DNA of 64,000 bases from Escherichia coli (lineage in GTDB: Bacteria; Pseudomonadota; Gammaproteobacteria; Enterobacterales; Enterobacteriaceae), in NCBI RefSeq assembly GCF_002854065.1, contig NZ_CP024147.1, one strand, 5' to 3'. Below the pieces are notes generated by a model. That model was not told where the DNA came from, ran no database searches, and saw only the letters and a list, made by a program, of their open reading frames with translations. Below, one piece after another: positions 5,932 through 53,313 of this stretch (positions are counted from its first letter, which is position 1; each line of letters opens with the position of its first letter). Both the position numbers and the translations under genes were made by a program.

Positions 5932-6512
5932 CAGTTACCCAGCGTGGTGGAGACGCGTGCAGGCGTTGCCGGAGTATCCGTTGTGGTCGACGTCTGTTCT
6001 TCGTCGGAACGAATATCCGCAGCACGGATGCTTGGCAGCTTACGAATCAGCTGTTCGGCAGCACGGTCGTACATCTCTTTTACGATCATGTCTTGTTCGT
6101 TATCTTTCGCTAACGCCATTTGCGGGTTATCAAAGAACGAACGGAAGACTTTGGCGCTAATCGGGTAGATATCACGGCCGGGGATCAACACGGTCGCATT
6201 CACCGTCATGATCATCTGATACTCTGCTGTTTGACCGTTACGGAATACCGATGCGGTATCTTTCGCGATGCTCACTTTACCCAAACGCAGGGATGGAACG
6301 TCCTTACGCGTGGTTTCTTTATCAAGCAACTCGACACCATTCAGACGTAACTGGTTACGCACCGCACGGCTTAATGGCCCGTTCGGATCGCCTGAGTCCA
6401 GGATCATGACCTTCATAGTGGAAGGAACCTGCGTGGTGTCACGCAGATGCCAGCCACACCCGGCGGTGATTAACACCGCCAGAGATAACAACAATGTTGC
6501 CAGATATCGCAC
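5931..6512 (-). CDS. lptE: LPS assembly lipoprotein LptE
   Basis: 193-aa ORF with lipoprotein signal and lipobox (LITAGC); position between holA and leuS. Confidence 0.92.
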
Positions 6513-6526
6513 GCTTCCTCCCGCGC

Positions 6527-9109
6527 TTAGCCAACGACCAGATTGAGGAGTTTACCTGGTACGTAAATCACTTTACGTACAGTAACGCCATCAAGATATT
6601 TTGCTACCAGATGTTCCTGGCCAGCACGTTCGCGAACCTGTTCTTCCGTTGCGTCCACCGGAACGGTGATTTTGGCACGGACTTTACCGTTAACCTGCAC
6701 CACGACCAGCGTGGAGTCTTCCACCATCGCTTTTTCGTCAGCAACCGGCCACGGCGCGTTGTCGATATCGCCTTCGCCTTTCAGTTCCTGCCACAGCGTG
6801 AAGCAAATGTGCGGGGTGAACGGGTTAAGCATACGGACAACGGCCAGCAGTGCTTCCTGCATCAGAGCGCGATCCTGCTCGCCATCGGTCGGTGCTTTCG
6901 CCAGTTTGTTCATCAGCTCCATAATCGCCGCAATTGCGGTGTTGAAGGTCTGACGACGGCCGATATCATCGGTCACTTTAGCGATAGTTTTATGCACATC
7001 GCGACGCAGCGCTTTCTGATCTTCAGTCAGTGCATCAACGTTCAGTGCCGCAACATCACCTTTCGCAGTATGCTCGTACACCAGTTTCCAGACACGTTTC
7101 AGGAAGCGGTTAGCCCCTTCCACGCCGGACTCCTGCCATTCGAGAGTCATATCAGCCGGAGAAGCAAACATCATAAACAGACGAACGGTGTCCGCGCCGT
7201 AACGTTCAACCATCACCTGCGGGTCGATACCGTTGTTCTTCGACTTGGACATTTTGCTCATGCCGGTATAAACCAGTTCATGGCCTGCCGCATCTTTCGC
7301 TTTCACGATACGGCCTTTCTCGTCACGTTCAACGATAGCATCAACCGGGGAAACCCAGTTACGTTCGCCGTTTTCGCCAACATAGTAGAAGGCATCTGCC
7401 AGCACCATACCCTGACACAGCAACTGTTTCGCTGGTTCGTCAGAGTTCACCATGCCTGCATCACGCATCAGTTTGTGGAAGAAGCGGAAGTAGAGCAGGT
7501 GCATAATGGCGTGTTCGATACCACCAATGTAGATATCCACCGGCAGCCAGTAGTTAGCCGCTTCGGAATCCAGCATACCTTCTTTGTACTGCGGGCAAGT
7601 GTAGCGCGCATAGTACCAGGAGGACTCCATAAAGGTGTCGAAAGTGTCGGTTTCACGCAGTGCTGGCATACCGTTAACGGTAGTTTTCGCCCACTCCGGA
7701 TCTGCTTTAATCGGGCTGGTAATGCCGTCCATTACCACATCTTCCGGCAGGATCACCGGCAGCTGGTCGTCCGGGGTCGGCATTACGGTACCGTCTTCCA
7801 GCGTCACCATCGGAATCGGCGCGCCCCAGTAACGCTGACGGGAAACACCCCAGTCGCGCAGGCGGTAGTTCACTTTACGCTCGCCAACGCCCATCGCAGT
7901 CAGTTTATCGGCGATGGCGTTGAAGGCCGCTTCATGGTCAAGACCGTTGAACTCGCCAGAGTTGAACAGCACGCCTTTTTCAGTCAGGGCTTGCTGAGAA
8001 AGATCTGGCTCAGAGCCGTCAGCCGCCAGGATAACCGGTTTGATGTTCAGGCCGTATTTAGAGGCAAACTCGTAGTCGCGTTGGTCGTGCCCCGGAACCG
8101 CCATTACTGCGCCCGTGCCGTACTCCATCAATACGAAGTTTGCTGCCCAAACGGGAATTTCTTCGCCCGTTAATGGGTGAACAGCTTTAAAGCCAGTATT
8201 GACGCCTTTTTTCTCCATCGTCGCCATTTCAGCTTCAGCAACTTTGGTGTTACGGCATTCGTCAATAAAGGCCGCCAGTTCAGGATTATTTTCCGCCGCT
8301 TTCTGCGCCAGCGGATGACCCGCAGCTACCGCCAGGTAGGTACAACCCATAAAGGTGTCCGGGCGGGTAGTGTAAACGGTCAGCGTGTTGTCATAGTCGT
8401 TAACGTTGAAGGTGATTTCCACGCCTTCGGAACGACCGATCCAGTTACGCTGCATGGTTTTAACGGTGTCTGGCCAGTGATCCAGTTTATCCAAATCGTT
8501 GAGCAGCTCGTCAGCGTAAGCAGTGATTTTGATAAACCACTGCGGGATCTCTTTACGTTCAACTTTGGTATCGCAGCGCCAGCAGCAGCCGTCGATAACT
8601 TGTTCGTTCGCCAGTACGGTCTGGTCGTTCGGGCACCAGTTGACCGCAGAAGTCTTCTTATATACCAGGCCTTTTTTATACAGCTCGGTGAAGAATTTCT
8701 GTTCCCAACGGTAGTATTCCGGCGTACAGGTTGCCAGCTCGCGGCTCCAGTCATAACCAAAGCCCAGCATTTTGAGCTGGTTTTTCATATACGCGATGTT
8801 GTCGTACGTCCACGGTGCCGGAGCGGTGTTGTTTTTCACCGCCGCGCCTTCCGCAGGCAGACCAAACGCGTCCCAGCCGATCGGCTGCAGAACGTTTTTG
8901 CCCAGCATGCGCTGGTAACGGGCGATCACGTCACCGATGGTGTAGTTACGTACGTGGCCCATGTGTAGTCGACCAGAAGGATAGGGAAGCATAGACAGGC
9001 AGTAATACTTCTCTTTGCTCTCGTCTTCGGTTACTTCAAATGTGCGCTTCTCATCCCAATGAAGCTGTACTTTGGATTCTATCTCTTCCGGGCGGTATTG
9101 CTCTTGCAT
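6527..9109 (-). CDS. leuS: Leucyl-tRNA synthetase
   Basis: Class I aaRS signatures (HMGH motif, KMSKS-type MSKSK). Start set at MQEQYRPEE (860 aa); the ORF track extends 8 codons further upstream to 9133. Confidence 0.95.
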
Positions 9110-48307: not shown

Positions 48308-49627
48308 TTAACCGTGTTTATTTTTCAGTTCAAAGCGTGGTGATACCAGACCATACAGTGTCCAACCAAGGAAGGTCACGATGGAACCGTACAGCATGGC
48401 TTCTTCCCCGGATGAGTACAGCGCATAAAAGCTGTACATCGCGCCAACAAAAGCAACAAAGTTTGCAACTTTCGCTTTTGAGGGGGGCACATTAGCGACC
48501 TTCTGAATAATGACTAATGCCGCCATTGACAGAATATACGGAATGATATTGGTCACCACGGCCAGGTTAACCAGCACGTTGAACTGACTGTTTAGCGACG
48601 GGCTAATCGTCATCAGCGCCAACCCGCTCTGGATAATCACAATGGTCAACATTCCCTGCACCGGTGCATCCACTTTGGTTACACGGGAGAAAATTTTAGG
48701 GAAGTAGCCTTCATCAGATGAAGATTTAAACACCTGGGCAATGGTGAACTGCCAGCCAAGCAGCGAACCGCAGCAGGACATCACCATCAGCGCCATAATG
48801 ACTTTACCCACTTCCGGCGTGAACATCTGCGCGAAGGCCAGACCAAATGGTGCCGTTGAATTTGCCAGCTCCATATTTGGCACAATCCCGGCAATCACGT
48901 TGGTGGAGACGATATAAATCACCGCCGCACCTAACGTACCGCCGAGTACCGCGATTGGCACATTACGTTCCGGGTTTTCCACTACATCAGTATTTGCACA
49001 CGCAGACTCCAGACCAAGAAAAGCCCACAGCGTCATAGCGATGGAAGAACCTACCGCACTGAAGAACGGTGCATGATGCGGATTCCAGGAATCAACGTAC
49101 AGCGTCGGGCTAAACCAGAACCAGCCAATAATGCACAGACCGACGACCGGAATAATGACTCCCCACACAGTAATGCTACTGATTTGCCCGGTAATGCGCG
49201 CACCACCAAAGTTAGCCACGGTACAAATCCACAGCACCCCGATGGTCGCAAGACCAATCTGCACTGGCGACAAACTCGCGCCGAGCAGTTCGGTGCCGTA
49301 ACCAACCGCCGAAATAGCAATCGCGACGTTAGCAATCAGCAGTGAGACGCCGTAGGTATAGTTCGCCATAAAGTTACCGGATTTACCGAAAGCATACTCG
49401 GCATAACCGCCCATACCTCCTGATTTACGGCTGAACATACCGCATTTTGCGAATGCCCATGCCAGTGCCATTGAGCCTACGGCTGTCACCAGCCAGGAGA
49501 TAATTGAGATTGTCCCAACTTCGGCAAGCTTTGTCGGCAGCATGATGATACCGGAGCCCATCATGTTGACCATCGTCAGTATGGTTAACTGAACGACGCC
49601 CATTTTGTTCGATTTAGCCTGACTCAT
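48308..49627 (-). CDS. potE: Putrescine-ornithine antiporter (APC family)
   Basis: 439-aa 12-TM ORF overlapping the speF stop. Confidence 0.93.
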   Translation of the reverse strand: MSQAKSNKMGVVQLTILTMVNMMGSGIIMLPTKLAEVGTISIISWLVTAVGSMALAWAFAKCGMFSRKSGGMGGYAEYAFGKSGNFMANYTYGVSLLIANVAIAISAVGYGTELLGASLSPVQIGLATIGVLWICTVANFGGARITGQISSITVWGVIIPVVGLCIIGWFWFSPTLYVDSWNPHHAPFFSAVGSSIAMTLWAFLGLESACANTDVVENPERNVPIAVLGGTLGAAVIYIVSTNVIAGIVPNMELANSTAPFGLAFAQMFTPEVGKVIMALMVMSCCGSLLGWQFTIAQVFKSSSDEGYFPKIFSRVTKVDAPVQGMLTIVIIQSGLALMTISPSLNSQFNVLVNLAVVTNIIPYILSMAALVIIQKVANVPPSKAKVANFVAFVGAMYSFYALYSSGEEAMLYGSIVTFLGWTLYGLVSPRFELKNKHG

Positions 49628-51822
49628 AATTTTTCCCCTTTCAGCAGGGTGCTTTGCGCATCACGAGGCTTGATGACATAGCACCAAACTTGCTTACGAC
49701 CATCATGTTCTTCGATATAGACACCCTGCAGCTCCGGTGCAAAACCTGGCAGCAGGTTGATCCCTTCTTCCAGAGCGCTGAAGTAACGCAGAACAGCACC
49801 ACCCCAGATTTCACCCGGAACAACACACAGCACACCCGGAGGATAAGGAAGCGCACCTTCGGCAGCGATACGGCCTTCAGCATCCGGCAGACGAACCAGT
49901 TCCACTTCACCGCGTAAATAGGCGTAGTTGGCTTCTTGCGGATTCATGCTGACGCGTGGGAAGTGCTCCTTACGGAACATCTCTTTTTGCAGTTGTTTCA
50001 CGTTGTGGCGGGCATACAAATCATGCATTTCCTGACACAACTGACGCAGGGTATAACCGGCGTAGCGCTCTTCATGCTGTTTGTAGATGGAAGGTAGCAC
50101 TTCTGCTAATGGCGCGTCGGACTCAAGCAGTTTTTCGAAGCGTACCAGCAGGGCAACAAGTTGCTGAAGTTTGGCCATATCTTCTGCCGGAGTCAGCAGG
50201 AAGAGGATGGAGTTAAGATCGCATTTTTCCGGCACTACGCCATTTTCGCGCAGGAAGTTAGCAAGAATCGTCGCGGGTACACCGAACGCTTCATATTCGC
50301 CGTTACGTGCATCAATACCTGGGGTTGTCAGCAACAGTTTGCATGGATCGACAAAGTATTGATTCTCTGCATAGCCTTCAAAAGAATGCCAGTGTTCCCC
50401 TGGTACAAACTGGAAGAAGCGCAGATCAACCGCAATTTGCGCTGTTTCATACGACTGCCAGGGTTTACCATCCACCAGTTCAGGTATGAACGGACGAATA
50501 TGCTGACAGTTATCGAGGATCAGTTTGCGGGCATTAATGCCATTTACCACACAATCCATCCACATATTACGACCGCTGACACCTTCATGCATTTTGGCGT
50601 TGATATCCAGTGCGGCAAACAGCGGATAGAACGGGCTGGTGGAGGCATGCATCATAAAGGCGTTGTTCATGCGTTTGTGCGGTACATAACGCTGTTGCCC
50701 TTTGATGTGGCTGTCTTTTTTATGGATTTGTGAAGTTTGAGAAAAACCAGCCTGCTGTTTATGTACGGATTGCGTAACCAGAATACCCGGATCGTTCTCA
50801 TTAAGATCCAGCAACAGCGGCGAACAGTCAGCCATCATCGGAATAAACTGTTCATAGCCGACCCATGCGGAATCAAACAGGATGTAGTCACACAGATGAC
50901 CAATTTTATCCACCACCTGGCGGGCGTTATAAATCGTACCGTCGTAGGTGCCTAGCTGAATCACAGCGAGGCGGAACGGACGCGCCTCTTTTGCCCGTTG
51001 CGGTGCAACTTCTGTAATCAGTTCACGCAGATAACTTTCTTCGAAGCAGTGCGCATCAATACCACCGATAAAACCATACGGGTTACGTGCTGTTTCCAGA
51101 TAAACCGGTGTTGCACCAGCCTGTAGCAAGGCCCCGTGGTGGTTAGACTTATGGTTATTGCGGTCAAATAGCACCAGATCACCCGGTGTCAGCAGGGCGT
51201 TTAAAACCACTTTGTTAGAAGATGAAGTACCATTTAAAACGAAGTAGGTTTTATCGGCATTAAACACTTTTGCTGCATGTTGCTGTGCAATGCATGGCGC
51301 GCCTTCGTGAATCAGCAGATCGCCCATCGCGACGTCGGCGTTGCACAAGTCGGCACGGAACAGCGCCTCACCAAAGTATTCCACAAACTGATTCCCCGCC
51401 GGATGGCGACGGAAAAATTCGCCGCCCTGATGACCGGGGCAGTCAAATGCGCTGTTGCCCTGATTGACATAATCGACCAGTGCGCGAAAGAAAGGTGGGC
51501 GCAGTTGAGTTTCATAATGGCTGGCAGCGGTTTCTAACTGACGACCATAAAATTCTTTGCGTGCTTCTCCATGTTCGAAGACACCAGAAATACGTGAAAG
51601 ATATTCTGCTGGTATACGTTCTTCATTTTCCGTTGCAATAAAAACAGGAATGTCATAGCCAGTAGCGTCTATTTCATCGAGTTTTCCACGTTCAACATCA
51701 CTGACTGATAAAATAATGGCGGCAACGTCAATATAATTACTTTCGTCTATATTCACGCATGCACGATGAGTGGAAAAACAATCCGGGCAAGAACGACTAA
51801 CGGCAATTTTTAATTCTGACAT
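49624..51822 (-). CDS. speF: Inducible ornithine decarboxylase (PLP-dependent, fold I)
   Basis: About 732-aa ORF of the Orn/Lys/Arg decarboxylase family. Start ambiguous between ATG at 51831 (MNKMSELK) and 51822 (MSELKIAV). Confidence 0.92.
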   Translation of the reverse strand: MSELKIAVSRSCPDCFSTHRACVNIDESNYIDVAAIILSVSDVERGKLDEIDATGYDIPVFIATENEERIPAEYLSRISGVFEHGEARKEFYGRQLETAASHYETQLRPPFFRALVDYVNQGNSAFDCPGHQGGEFFRRHPAGNQFVEYFGEALFRADLCNADVAMGDLLIHEGAPCIAQQHAAKVFNADKTYFVLNGTSSSNKVVLNALLTPGDLVLFDRNNHKSNHHGALLQAGATPVYLETARNPYGFIGGIDAHCFEESYLRELITEVAPQRAKEARPFRLAVIQLGTYDGTIYNARQVVDKIGHLCDYILFDSAWVGYEQFIPMMADCSPLLLDLNENDPGILVTQSVHKQQAGFSQTSQIHKKDSHIKGQQRYVPHKRMNNAFMMHASTSPFYPLFAALDINAKMHEGVSGRNMWMDCVVNGINARKLILDNCQHIRPFIPELVDGKPWQSYETAQIAVDLRFFQFVPGEHWHSFEGYAENQYFVDPCKLLLTTPGIDARNGEYEAFGVPATILANFLRENGVVPEKCDLNSILFLLTPAEDMAKLQQLVALLVRFEKLLESDAPLAEVLPSIYKQHEERYAGYTLRQLCQEMHDLYARHNVKQLQKEMFRKEHFPRVSMNPQEANYAYLRGEVELVRLPDAEGRIAAEGALPYPPGVLCVVPGEIWGGAVLRYFSALEEGINLLPGFAPELQGVYIEEHDGRKQVWCYVIKPRDAQSTLLKGEKL

Positions 51823-51976
51823 TTTGTTCATCTCTTTATTTCAGGTAATAGCAGGTCCTCAATTTCTCAAAGGAGAAATCGATCACGCCGGAAAAAAGCA
51901 AAGCTCCACCGCTGATAAATAAATCAGTAGTTTGCTTTTTGCAGATGCAATAACCCAGACCAGCCCGGTAACTGGC

Positions 51977-52150
51977 TATACTCGTCATACTTCAAGTTGC
52001 ATGTGCTGCGTCTGCGTTCGCTCACCCCAGTCACTTACTCATGTAAGCTCCTGGGGATTCACTCGCTTGTCGCCTTCCTGCAACTCGAATTATTTAGAGT
52101 ATATACTCGTCATACTTCAAGTTGCATATGCTGCGACTCGAATTATGTAG
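51977..52150. repeat. ERIC/IRU-type repeat plus a truncated tandem second copy
   Basis: Core cgctcaccccagtcacttact / atgtaagctcctggggattcac (52019-52062) matches the ERIC consensus; 34-bp segment tatactcgtcatacttcaagttgcatRtgctgcg occurs twice (51977-52010 and 52103-52136), the second joined directly to the element's right-end motif actcgaattat. Confidence 0.7.
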
Positions 52151-52256
52151 AGTTTAAAAGGGTTAGCAGTATATGAGCACCGAGGGATACAGGTATTAAC
52201 CTGTAATGCTTAAAGTCAGGGAGACCTGTACGCTGGGGTGCCCTTTAGTCAGAAGA

Positions 52257-52361
52257 CTAGCGGGCATTAAAGAAATGAAAGTCAAAACTATTACGATGGG
52301 CAAACTTCATGATATGGGTTGTCCGCCTTATATGAGGCATTAAGCGGTTATTATTTTCCAT
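52257..52361 (-). CDS. speFL: speF leader arrest peptide SpeFL (34 codons)
   Basis: Minus-strand ORF MENNNRLMPHIRRTTHIMKFAHRNSFDFHFFNAR, upstream of speF; matches the described ornithine-sensing arrest peptide. Confidence 0.8.
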   Translation of the reverse strand: MENNNRLMPHIRRTTHIMKFAHRNSFDFHFFNAR

Positions 52362-52635
52362 TTACCTTTACCTCTTGCTGTGTCAGTTGAAGGTAGAGTT
52401 ATTCTATCCATGAAATGGCTATAATCTGTGAAGAAGATCAACAAAAAACGATCATACCCCAGATAATAAATCATTAATTATGAATAGCGCCATACTAGAT
52501 GCTGTTTTGTTACTTAAATGTTGTAATTTCGTGTTTTATATTTGCGTTAAGAAATTAAACCTGCCAAATAATAATATTTGGCGCAGGTTTAATAATAAAT
52601 TAATCACTATTTAGGCGAATTTATTGAATAAAAAT

Positions 52636-53313
52636 TCAAAGCATAAACCGATAACCAATCCCAGTTTCAGTAATAAAATGGCGAGGCCGGGCCGGGTCTT
52701 GCTCCAGTTTTTGTCGCAGATGCCCCATATAAATACGCAAATAATGACTGTGTTCGACCGCGTTTGGCCCCCACACCTGGTTAAGGAGTTGGCGCTGGGT
52801 GAGCACTTTCCCGGCATTATTCAGCAGCACCGCCAGCAGGCGGAATTCAATCGGCGTGAGATGCACCTCTTCCTCACCCCGGTGAATCACGCGGGCGGCT
52901 AAATCGACGGTAACATCGGAGAATTTCACCAGCGGATCGGGCGCGGTGGTGACAGAGTGGCGGCGTAATGCGACGCGCAGACGGGCCTGCAATTCGCCAA
53001 TGCCAAACGGCTTACTCAGATAATCATCCGCTCCGGCATCCAGCGCGGCGATTTTGTCGCTCTCTTCGCTGCGTGCGGAAAGCACAATCACCGGCACCGC
53101 GCTCCACTGGCGCAGGTCGCGGATAAACTCAATCCCATCACCATCGGGCAGGCCGAGATCGAGAATAATCAAATCTGGCTTACGGGTTGCCGCTTCCAGC
53201 AAGCCGCGTTGCAGCGTTTCGGCCTCAAAGACGCGCATCCCGTCGCCCTCCAGCGCCGTGCGCAGAAAGCGACGAATAGCCTGTTCATCTTCAACAATCA
53301 GAACGTTTGTCAC
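52636..53313 (-). CDS. kdpE: Response regulator KdpE (OmpR family)
   Basis: 225-aa ORF with receiver domain and winged-helix output; overlaps kdpD stop. Confidence 0.94.
   Translation of the reverse strand: MTNVLIVEDEQAIRRFLRTALEGDGMRVFEAETLQRGLLEAATRKPDLIILDLGLPDGDGIEFIRDLRQWSAVPVIVLSARSEESDKIAALDAGADDYLSKPFGIGELQARLRVALRRHSVTTAPDPLVKFSDVTVDLAARVIHRGEEEVHLTPIEFRLLAVLLNNAGKVLTQRQLLNQVWGPNAVEHSHYLRIYMGHLRQKLEQDPARPRHFITETGIGYRFML

Follow-up and report, generated by a model that had tools for sequence, protein, structure and literature searches.

SpeFL controls acid- and ornithine-induced putrescine synthesis and is, to our knowledge, among the few cases in which a nascent peptide and the ribosome jointly sense a metabolite. 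The peptide consists of a sensor domain (residues 1 to 13) and an effector domain (residues 14 to 34). With the K-12 SpeFL sequence, ornithine arrests the ribosome in a puromycin-insensitive manner when the P site contains codon 33 or 34 (Herrero del Valle et al., bioRxiv 10.1101/604074, later Nat Microbiol 2020). The ornithine pocket is built from 23S rRNA and the residues Pro9, Arg12, and Arg13, the arrest needs H10, I11, R12, R13, and H16 of the HIRRXXH loop plus residues 1 to 7, and F26, F28, F30, and F31 are needed for the peptide to compact and thereby force U2585 into the way of RF1 (10.1101/604074). Mutation of these five loop residues and four phenylalanines abolished or severely impaired stalling in vitro, ornithine-dependent stalling was lost in vitro from a frameshifted speFL, the rare Arg codons 12 and 13 hold polysomes off the Rho-loading site, and bicyclomycin led to constitutive expression (10.1101/604074).

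For the Salmonella counterpart orf34, the transcription start was placed 31 nt before the AUG, and Rho-dependent termination gives a transcript of ~157 nt whose end lies ~20 nt beyond the stop codon (Ben-Zvi et al. 2019, PMC6386406). In the same leader, a helix between nucleotides 99 to 125 and the speF ribosome-binding site (RBS) was validated by compensatory mutations at C116/A117, and a leader structure termed the "ring" is the target of a distinct arginine/RNase G layer (PMC6386406).

The speFL reading frame and its operon

The window analyzed here is a 64,000-nt stretch of E. coli DNA (NCBI RefSeq assembly GCF_002854065.1, contig NZ_CP024147.1). An intact ORF of 34 codons had been predicted on its minus strand at positions 52257 to 52361, and translation of these positions gave exactly MENNNRLMPHIRRTTHIMKFAHRNSFDFHFFNAR followed by TAG. 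The codons read ATG GAA AAT AAT AAC CGC TTA ATG CCT CAT ATA AGG CGG ACA ACC CAT (codons 1 to 16) and ATC ATG AAG TTT GCC CAT CGT AAT AGT TTT GAC TTT CAT TTC TTT AAT GCC CGC TAG (codons 17 to 34 and the stop). The purine-rich stretch AGAGGTAAAGGTAA at 52362 to 52378 on the same strand abuts the ATG and is the putative ribosome-binding region; a purine-rich AAAGG/AAGGA block is kept at the corresponding place before speFL in other species.

The peptide was aligned with the published SpeFL chain of PDB entries 6TBV/6TC3, as the original prediction had proposed, and 32 of the 34 residues were identical (E = 1.7e-18), the residues required for arrest being retained. Pfam family PF10940 "Leader peptide SpeFL" (formerly DUF2618) matched residues 7 to 33 with 27.9 bits (E = 2.1e-6) against a gathering score of 25 bits. 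Residues 8 to 34 (KFAHRNSFDFHFFNAR, then stop) do not differ from those of K-12. The N-terminal segment (residues 1 to 9, MENNNRLMP) has its full length, and its last residue, P9, precedes H10, I11, R12, R13, T14, T15, and H16, so that the full HIRRxxH motif named in the prediction is kept as HIRRTTH. This motif, encoded at 52314 to 52334 on the minus strand (codons 10 to 16, CAT ATA AGG CGG ACA ACC CAT), is the probable ornithine-recognition loop, a role assigned from the published work (10.1101/604074; PMC6386406), and two rare Arg codons, AGG-CGG, stand next to each other in it at positions 12 and 13. The C-terminal arrest region, likewise foreseen, is intact as FDFHFFNAR, with F20, F26, F28, F30, F31, N32, A33, and R34 present before UAG. 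Thus, H10, I11, R12, R13, H16, F26, F28, F30, and F31, the residues mutated in the K-12 peptide, are all found in the window SpeFL.

On one strand, the gene order is kdpE, speFL, speF, and potE, and the neighbors score far above curated cut-offs. The regulated gene speF for the inducible ornithine decarboxylase (49624 to 51822, minus strand) reaches 1,431.5 bits with TIGR04301 ODC_inducible (cut-off 1,310 bits), and the second gene of the operon, potE for the putrescine-ornithine antiporter (48308 to 49627, minus strand), 856.9 bits with NF007938 (cut-off 409 bits). Although the longest speF ORF begins at 51831, the gene itself starts at the second ATG (51822 to 51820), a start backed by PGAP and by the NCBIfam alignment, which runs from residue 4 of the longer ORF. 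In K-12, a 2-nt indel between the two ATGs (alignment columns 815 to 830) puts the first one out of frame. The assignment of the ORF to SpeFL of the speF-potE operon was borne out by the structure match, by PF10940 above its cut-off, by the RefSeq name, and by speF-potE lying directly downstream. Judged from its sequence, the ORF is the intact SpeFL leader peptide of speF, an orthologue of K-12 SpeFL (b4803 in MG1655) and Salmonella ORF34; structure match, Pfam family, PGAP annotation, and the substitution pattern described below all point the same way.

The prediction had further held that six-frame tracks miss speFL. This stands for the ORF track used, by simple arithmetic, as 34 codons fall below its 60-codon cut-off, but not for public records, in which SpeFL was already annotated. 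With the minimum set to 20 aa, the entry 52257..52361 (-) "34aa ATG" appears in the ORF list; ORFs of at least 20 aa overlapping the surrounding 10 kb number 145, and a length of 34 codons alone is therefore no evidence of a gene. Over the 1-kb region around speFL, the window has 100% identity with E. coli chromosomes such as NZ_CP098231, in which PGAP calls the identical ORF "speFL, leader peptide SpeFL" (WP_001312672.1) between kdpE and speF. A scan of the peptide against NCBIfam matched no family, and the PGAP naming evidently follows some other rule. Given the RefSeq annotation of the exact ORF, speFL is already known at this place; the element is described and annotated in public records, and its mechanism gains nothing new here.

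Two further features lie between kdpE and speFL. A terminator-like hairpin, GCCAAATATTATTATTTGGC with a T-rich tail, was found at 52563 to 52582 on the minus strand, ~55 nt past the kdpE stop; it is plausibly the terminator of the kdp operon and would insulate the speF promoter, and K-12 has no alignable counterpart at that position. A 44-codon ORF, MIYYLGYDRFLLIFFTDYSHFMDRITLPSTDTARGKGKWKIITA, at 52340 to 52474 on the minus strand is called "hypothetical protein" by PGAP (WP_001299172.1) and elsewhere a "TonB-dependent receptor" fragment. It overlaps the start of speFL and crosses the conserved promoter block described below. As a candidate gene it was rejected: it has no Pfam match, is unannotated in K-12, and spans the promoter block, and the region carries many substitutions and indels between the two E. 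coli alleles. The 44-codon ORF is probably a spurious call.

Conservation of SpeFL and its alleles in E. coli

A search among representative proteins returned 14 matches, including several gene calls that were truncated or read-through; ORFs so short are rarely called, which explains the low number, and this search was superseded by a scan with a degenerate DNA pattern in one genome per species. The scan gave 82 Enterobacterales loci, of which 79 have exactly 34 codons. As HIRRTTHIM is fixed in the pattern, residues 10 to 18 are invariant in this species set by construction, and their invariance was not counted as evidence. Outside these residues, M1, E2, N3, N4, M8, R23, F26, F28, and N32 were invariant in the 79 species. 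Position 5 is occupied by N (60 species) or S (19), and position 7 is the most variable (L in 34, T in 12, M in 9, K in 8, A in 5, and others). MENNNRLMP is the commonest N-terminus (30 of 79), and K19 is confined to the loci of Escherichia (4 of 79). AGG is used at codon 12 in 68 of the 79 species and CGG at codon 13 in 48. In 72 species, speF follows downstream on the same strand; the remaining 7 loci have too little downstream sequence.

Between the window and K-12, speFL differs in 15 of 105 nt (85.7% identity), and 12 of these differences lie in third codon positions. There are 11 synonymous codon differences and two residue changes, with N in the window and S in K-12 at residue 5, and L in the window and T in K-12 at residue 7. 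When 15 substitutions were placed at random 100,000 times, two or fewer residue changes were obtained in none of the placements (mean, 9.8). The other two frames on the speFL strand contain stops, and 12 or 13 residues would change between the alleles in them. That 15 nucleotide differences yield only two residue changes points to purifying selection on the peptide sequence.

Among 5,426 complete E. coli genomes, a speFL match was obtained in 5,043, with at least 80% of the ORF covered in 5,020; no match was found in ~383. The window allele, at 99% identity or more, is carried by 3,332 of the genomes and the K-12 allele, at 85.7% identity, by ~1,704, so that the K-12 peptide used in the cryo-EM and toeprinting work is the minority form in E. 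coli. N5 and L7 fall on the two variable N-terminal positions and are the majority residues of the family; on these alignments, the differences from K-12 are therefore not damage, and they mark the majority E. coli allele. By analogy, the N5/L7 allele is expected to behave like the tested S5/T7 allele. As deletion of residues 1 to 7 abolishes arrest in K-12 SpeFL, N5 and L7, which lie inside the N-terminal hairpin, may shift the ornithine response quantitatively.

The whole kdpE-speF intergenic region exists in E. coli as two deeply divergent haplotypes (window 51823 to 52635 versus 5962 to 6556 of the K-12 locus, L002). Compared with K-12, the flanks of the window are 96% (speF-potE) and 97.5% (kdpDE) identical, and most of the upstream intergenic DNA cannot be aligned. 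The window-type leader is closest to that of E. albertii (83%), and the K-12-type leader shares more identity with leaders of Citrobacter and Raoultella (82%) than with that of the window type (80%). Such divergence suggests an old polymorphism or an import. In K-12, the pseudogene ybfI (L002, 2221 to 2365, 3' of potE) shares 89.7% identity with the 3' end of kdpE (window 52635 to 52779), and ybfP and ybfG lie between pgm and potE; CFT073 lacks both of the latter. These observations hint at a past rearrangement or import of a kdpE'-speFL-speF-potE segment in the K-12 lineage.

CFT073 carries an in-frame 63-nt deletion in speFL (L003, 5995 to 6036, equivalent to window 52257 to 52361) by which codons 3 to 23 are lost and MENSFDFHFFNAR is left. 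The whole sensor loop is absent, PGAP labels the remnant a partial "TonB-dependent receptor" pseudogene, and ornithine sensing is predicted to be lost in this strain. Partial speFL matches occurred in only ~20 genomes, and such deletions are thus rare. A 2.2-kb contig labelled as a Collinsella sp. metagenome-assembled genome (JAIJJM010000551.1) matched the speFL leader of E. coli K-12 at 100% identity; it almost certainly represents E. coli DNA that contaminates an actinobacterial metagenome bin.

The speF leader RNA and its ERIC insertion

The probable promoter of the speF operon has a -10 hexamer TAGAAT at 52401 to 52406 on the minus strand, with a start estimated near 52392. A GGATA(G/A)AATA block is conserved in the window, Salmonella, E. 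albertii, Enterobacter, Kluyvera, and Phytobacter, and upstream of it a TTGATC...TTCACAG block is conserved in the same taxa. A sigma-70 consensus scan called no promoter on the minus strand here, and the speF promoter was accordingly assigned by homology only.

A hairpin formed by codons 33 and 34 and the stop codon (52239 to 52266, minus strand; UGCCC..UAGUC-UUCU-GACUA..GGGCA) would correspond to the "pause hairpin" of the published model (10.1101/604074). Its folding energy is -15.8 kcal/mol (z = -4.6), and none of 200 shuffled sequences folded as well. When 68 distinct species sequences were folded singly, the median energy of the stop-codon hairpin was -14.7 and at least two stop-codon nucleotides were paired in 44 of them; comparable hairpins of differing sequence were seen in most Enterobacteriaceae, and the per-sequence folds gave none in Serratia and Cedecea. 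RNAalifold on a plain, unrefined alignment of the hairpin returned no consensus pairs, as indels shift its 3' arm, and conservation was therefore judged from the per-sequence folds.

In the minimum free energy fold of the 603-nt leader (from the putative start to speF +30), nucleotides 103 to 125 pair with 555 to 582. The 5' arm of this predicted long-range helix is the 3' part of speFL (52268 to 52290, minus strand) and the 3' arm (51811 to 51838, minus strand) covers the speF Shine-Dalgarno sequence AAAGAG and the ATG at 51822 to 51820. The helix contains the pairs C116-G and A117-U, which lie at the positions of the mutations and compensating changes made in Salmonella (PMC6386406). The K-12 leader folds into a shorter version of the helix. 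No compensatory changes were found in it between the window and K-12 alleles; the synonymous T-to-C changes of K-12 merely weaken it, and no covariation is claimed.

From the middle of the ORF to ~130 nt past the speFL stop, C exceeds G (C/G, 1.2 to 2.25), and no intrinsic terminator was detected in the leader. Both features are compatible with a Rho-loading region and are not diagnostic of one. A search of the leader against Rfam gave no described leader RNA, the only hits being V_AS5 and isrH below their gathering scores over the ERIC units.

Inside the spacer between speFL and speF, a full-length ERIC repeat of 127 nt was located at 51977 to 52103 on the minus strand. Both standard ERIC-PCR primer sequences, taken in the form that 233 papers use, match it, their sites standing back to back in the ERIC core (52019 to 52062). 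A short ERIC-derived unit (52102 to 52156, minus strand) adjoins the full copy; it has both ERIC ends without the core, and the two units share these ends as direct repeats D1 and D2. The distance from the speFL stop to the speF start is 434 nt in the window versus 257 nt in K-12 and ~310 nt in most genomes with the window allele; in 72 other species it ranges from 197 to 381 nt, mostly near 255 nt, and the window exceeds all of them. The full 434-nt spacer was recovered in one piece in 32 of the 5,426 E. coli genomes, with two further variants (32 to 34). At the speF leader, the full ERIC is absent from K-12 and CFT073, and the short unit alone is present in CFT073, O157:H7, and most window-allele genomes and absent in K-12. 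The ERIC family occupies ~5 to 12 places per E. coli genome. The ERIC units are predicted to fold into strong hairpins of their own within the loop that the long-range helix closes; this loop is the counterpart of the Salmonella "ring," and the predicted helix itself is retained. The literature search returned no relevant paper linking ERIC to speF. The rare ERIC insertion is the one unusual feature of the locus, and it lies outside the speFL coordinates.

By the published circuit, speFL would act in the window as the leader ORF that senses ornithine for speF-potE, a reading to which a probability of roughly 0.93 is assigned, with ornithine binding, stalling, and the role of Rho carried over by analogy from K-12 and Salmonella. 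Transcription would start ~30 nt 5' of speFL, and ribosomes would translate its 34 codons. When ornithine is scarce, the ribosome would terminate at UAG and leave, slow decoding of AGG-CGG would delay the ribosomes that follow, and a Rho-loading region overlapping and following the ORF would be exposed, so that Rho would stop transcription shortly past the stop-codon hairpin. The 3' part of speFL may, in addition, block the speF ribosome-binding site by pairing with it. With abundant ornithine, one molecule of it would be held between the wall of the 23S rRNA tunnel and the nascent HIRRTTH loop, the Phe-rich C-terminal half would compact, Asn32 would displace U2585, and RF1 could not release the peptide. 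The stall is expected with Arg34 in the P site. Stalled and queued ribosomes would then mask the Rho site and prevent the inhibitory helix from closing, and speF and potE would be made.

Other readings of the locus were weighed against this one. Short ORFs are abundant, NCBIfam has no SpeFL model, and PGAP annotates the 44-aa ORF, all of which would suit a 34-codon ORF that is a chance frame, with only the RNA mattering, or a real gene in the 44-codon ORF at 52340 to 52474. The third-position bias with two residue changes per 15 substitutions, however, already refutes a chance frame, the length of exactly 34 codons is kept in 79 species, and PDB and Pfam both match; the probability left to this reading is negligible. 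A different proposal, possible but unlikely in our judgment, is that speFL is mainly a classical translation-speed attenuator that reads the arginine supply through its two rare Arg codons, with pausing setting an RNase G-resistant or -sensitive fold and ornithine sensing being secondary. The arginine/RNase G layer was shown for Salmonella orf34 (Ben-Zvi et al., PMC6386406), and the AGG-CGG pair is present in the window speFL and widely conserved in other species, but such an attenuator is an additional layer and not an alternative. Codon speed alone does not explain why the peptide is so strictly conserved, also in its Phe-rich C-terminus, which lies far from the Arg codons, and a frameshift of speFL abolished ornithine-dependent stalling in vitro (10.1101/604074). 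The region equivalent to the RNase G-cut "ring" of Salmonella is moreover interrupted in the window by the ERIC units, which makes the arginine/RNase G layer the part of the circuit least certain to be preserved.

The same insertion raises the question of whether the peptide is intact while the 127-nt ERIC has altered or uncoupled the circuit downstream (mRNA stability, a processing site, or refolding), leaving speF regulated differently. The spacer of 434 nt, against 257 nt in K-12, ~310 nt commonly, and 197 to 381 nt in 72 species, is unusual in length, and its ERIC units, predicted to fold into strong hairpins of their own, occupy the counterpart of the "ring" that governs RNase G decay in Salmonella. 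The insertion is nonetheless placed 3' of the stop-codon hairpin, and termination by Rho in Salmonella occurs ~20 nt past the stop; the predicted helix between speFL and the speF RBS is kept despite it. The 434-nt form also persists at 97.9 to 100% identity in 32 genomes from varied hosts, and the insertion is thus not obviously deleterious. An uncoupled circuit is therefore considered improbable. It is similarly doubtful, if conceivable, that leader variation (the two speFL alleles, the ERIC insertion, and deletions as in CFT073) tunes the ornithine/arginine switch between lineages and that putrescine production of the window strain would be measurably unlike that of K-12. The ornithine-sensing leader of the published circuit remains the preferred reading of speFL.

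Comparison with described systems

The practical value of the analysis lies in showing that known regulatory leader peptides escape a 60-codon ORF filter and that the sensor ORF of the operon is intact in the window genome. Its added value is modest and lies at the population level, where the studied K-12 peptide is a minority allele and the window allele, the majority form, is closest to that of E. albertii; modest novelty attaches only to the speFL allele frequencies and the rare ERIC insertion in the leader.

With the described ERIC/IRU repeats, the 127-nt unit of the window shares the primer sites, the recurrence, and an imperfect palindrome that folds on itself. These repeats are not part of SpeFL and are relevant only as an insertion in the leader; no Rfam family covers ERIC.

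The speFL circuit resembles TnaC of tnaCAB in that a leader peptide and a free amino acid block the release factor and the stalled ribosome hides a Rho site, an analogy drawn in the K-12 work (10.1101/604074). Unlike SpeFL, TnaC has tryptophan as its ligand; the sequence is unrelated, the binding site in the tunnel is different, and the two are not homologous.

Much closer is orf34 of Salmonella Typhimurium, an orthologue with which the window shares the MENNNR-type N-terminus, the AGG-CGG codons, the -10 block, and the helix between leader nucleotides 99 to 125 and the speF RBS. The loci of Salmonella enterica arizonae and diarizonae encode MENNNRFMPHIRRTTHIMMFAHRNSFDFHFFNAR. Salmonella has F7 and M19 in contrast to L7 and K19 in the window, the published stop codon of S. 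Typhimurium is UGA (PMC6386406) and that of the window UAG, and speF starts at +516 in Salmonella versus about +571 in the window.

The closest described system is K-12 SpeFL (b4803; 6TBV, 6TC3). The window differs from it by N5 instead of S5, L7 instead of T7, 11 synonymous codons, and a spacer of 434 versus 257 nt. Shared by the two are the locus, the 34 codons and the UAG stop, HIRRTTH with its AGG-CGG codons, the effector residues and K19, the stop-codon hairpin, and speF-potE downstream.
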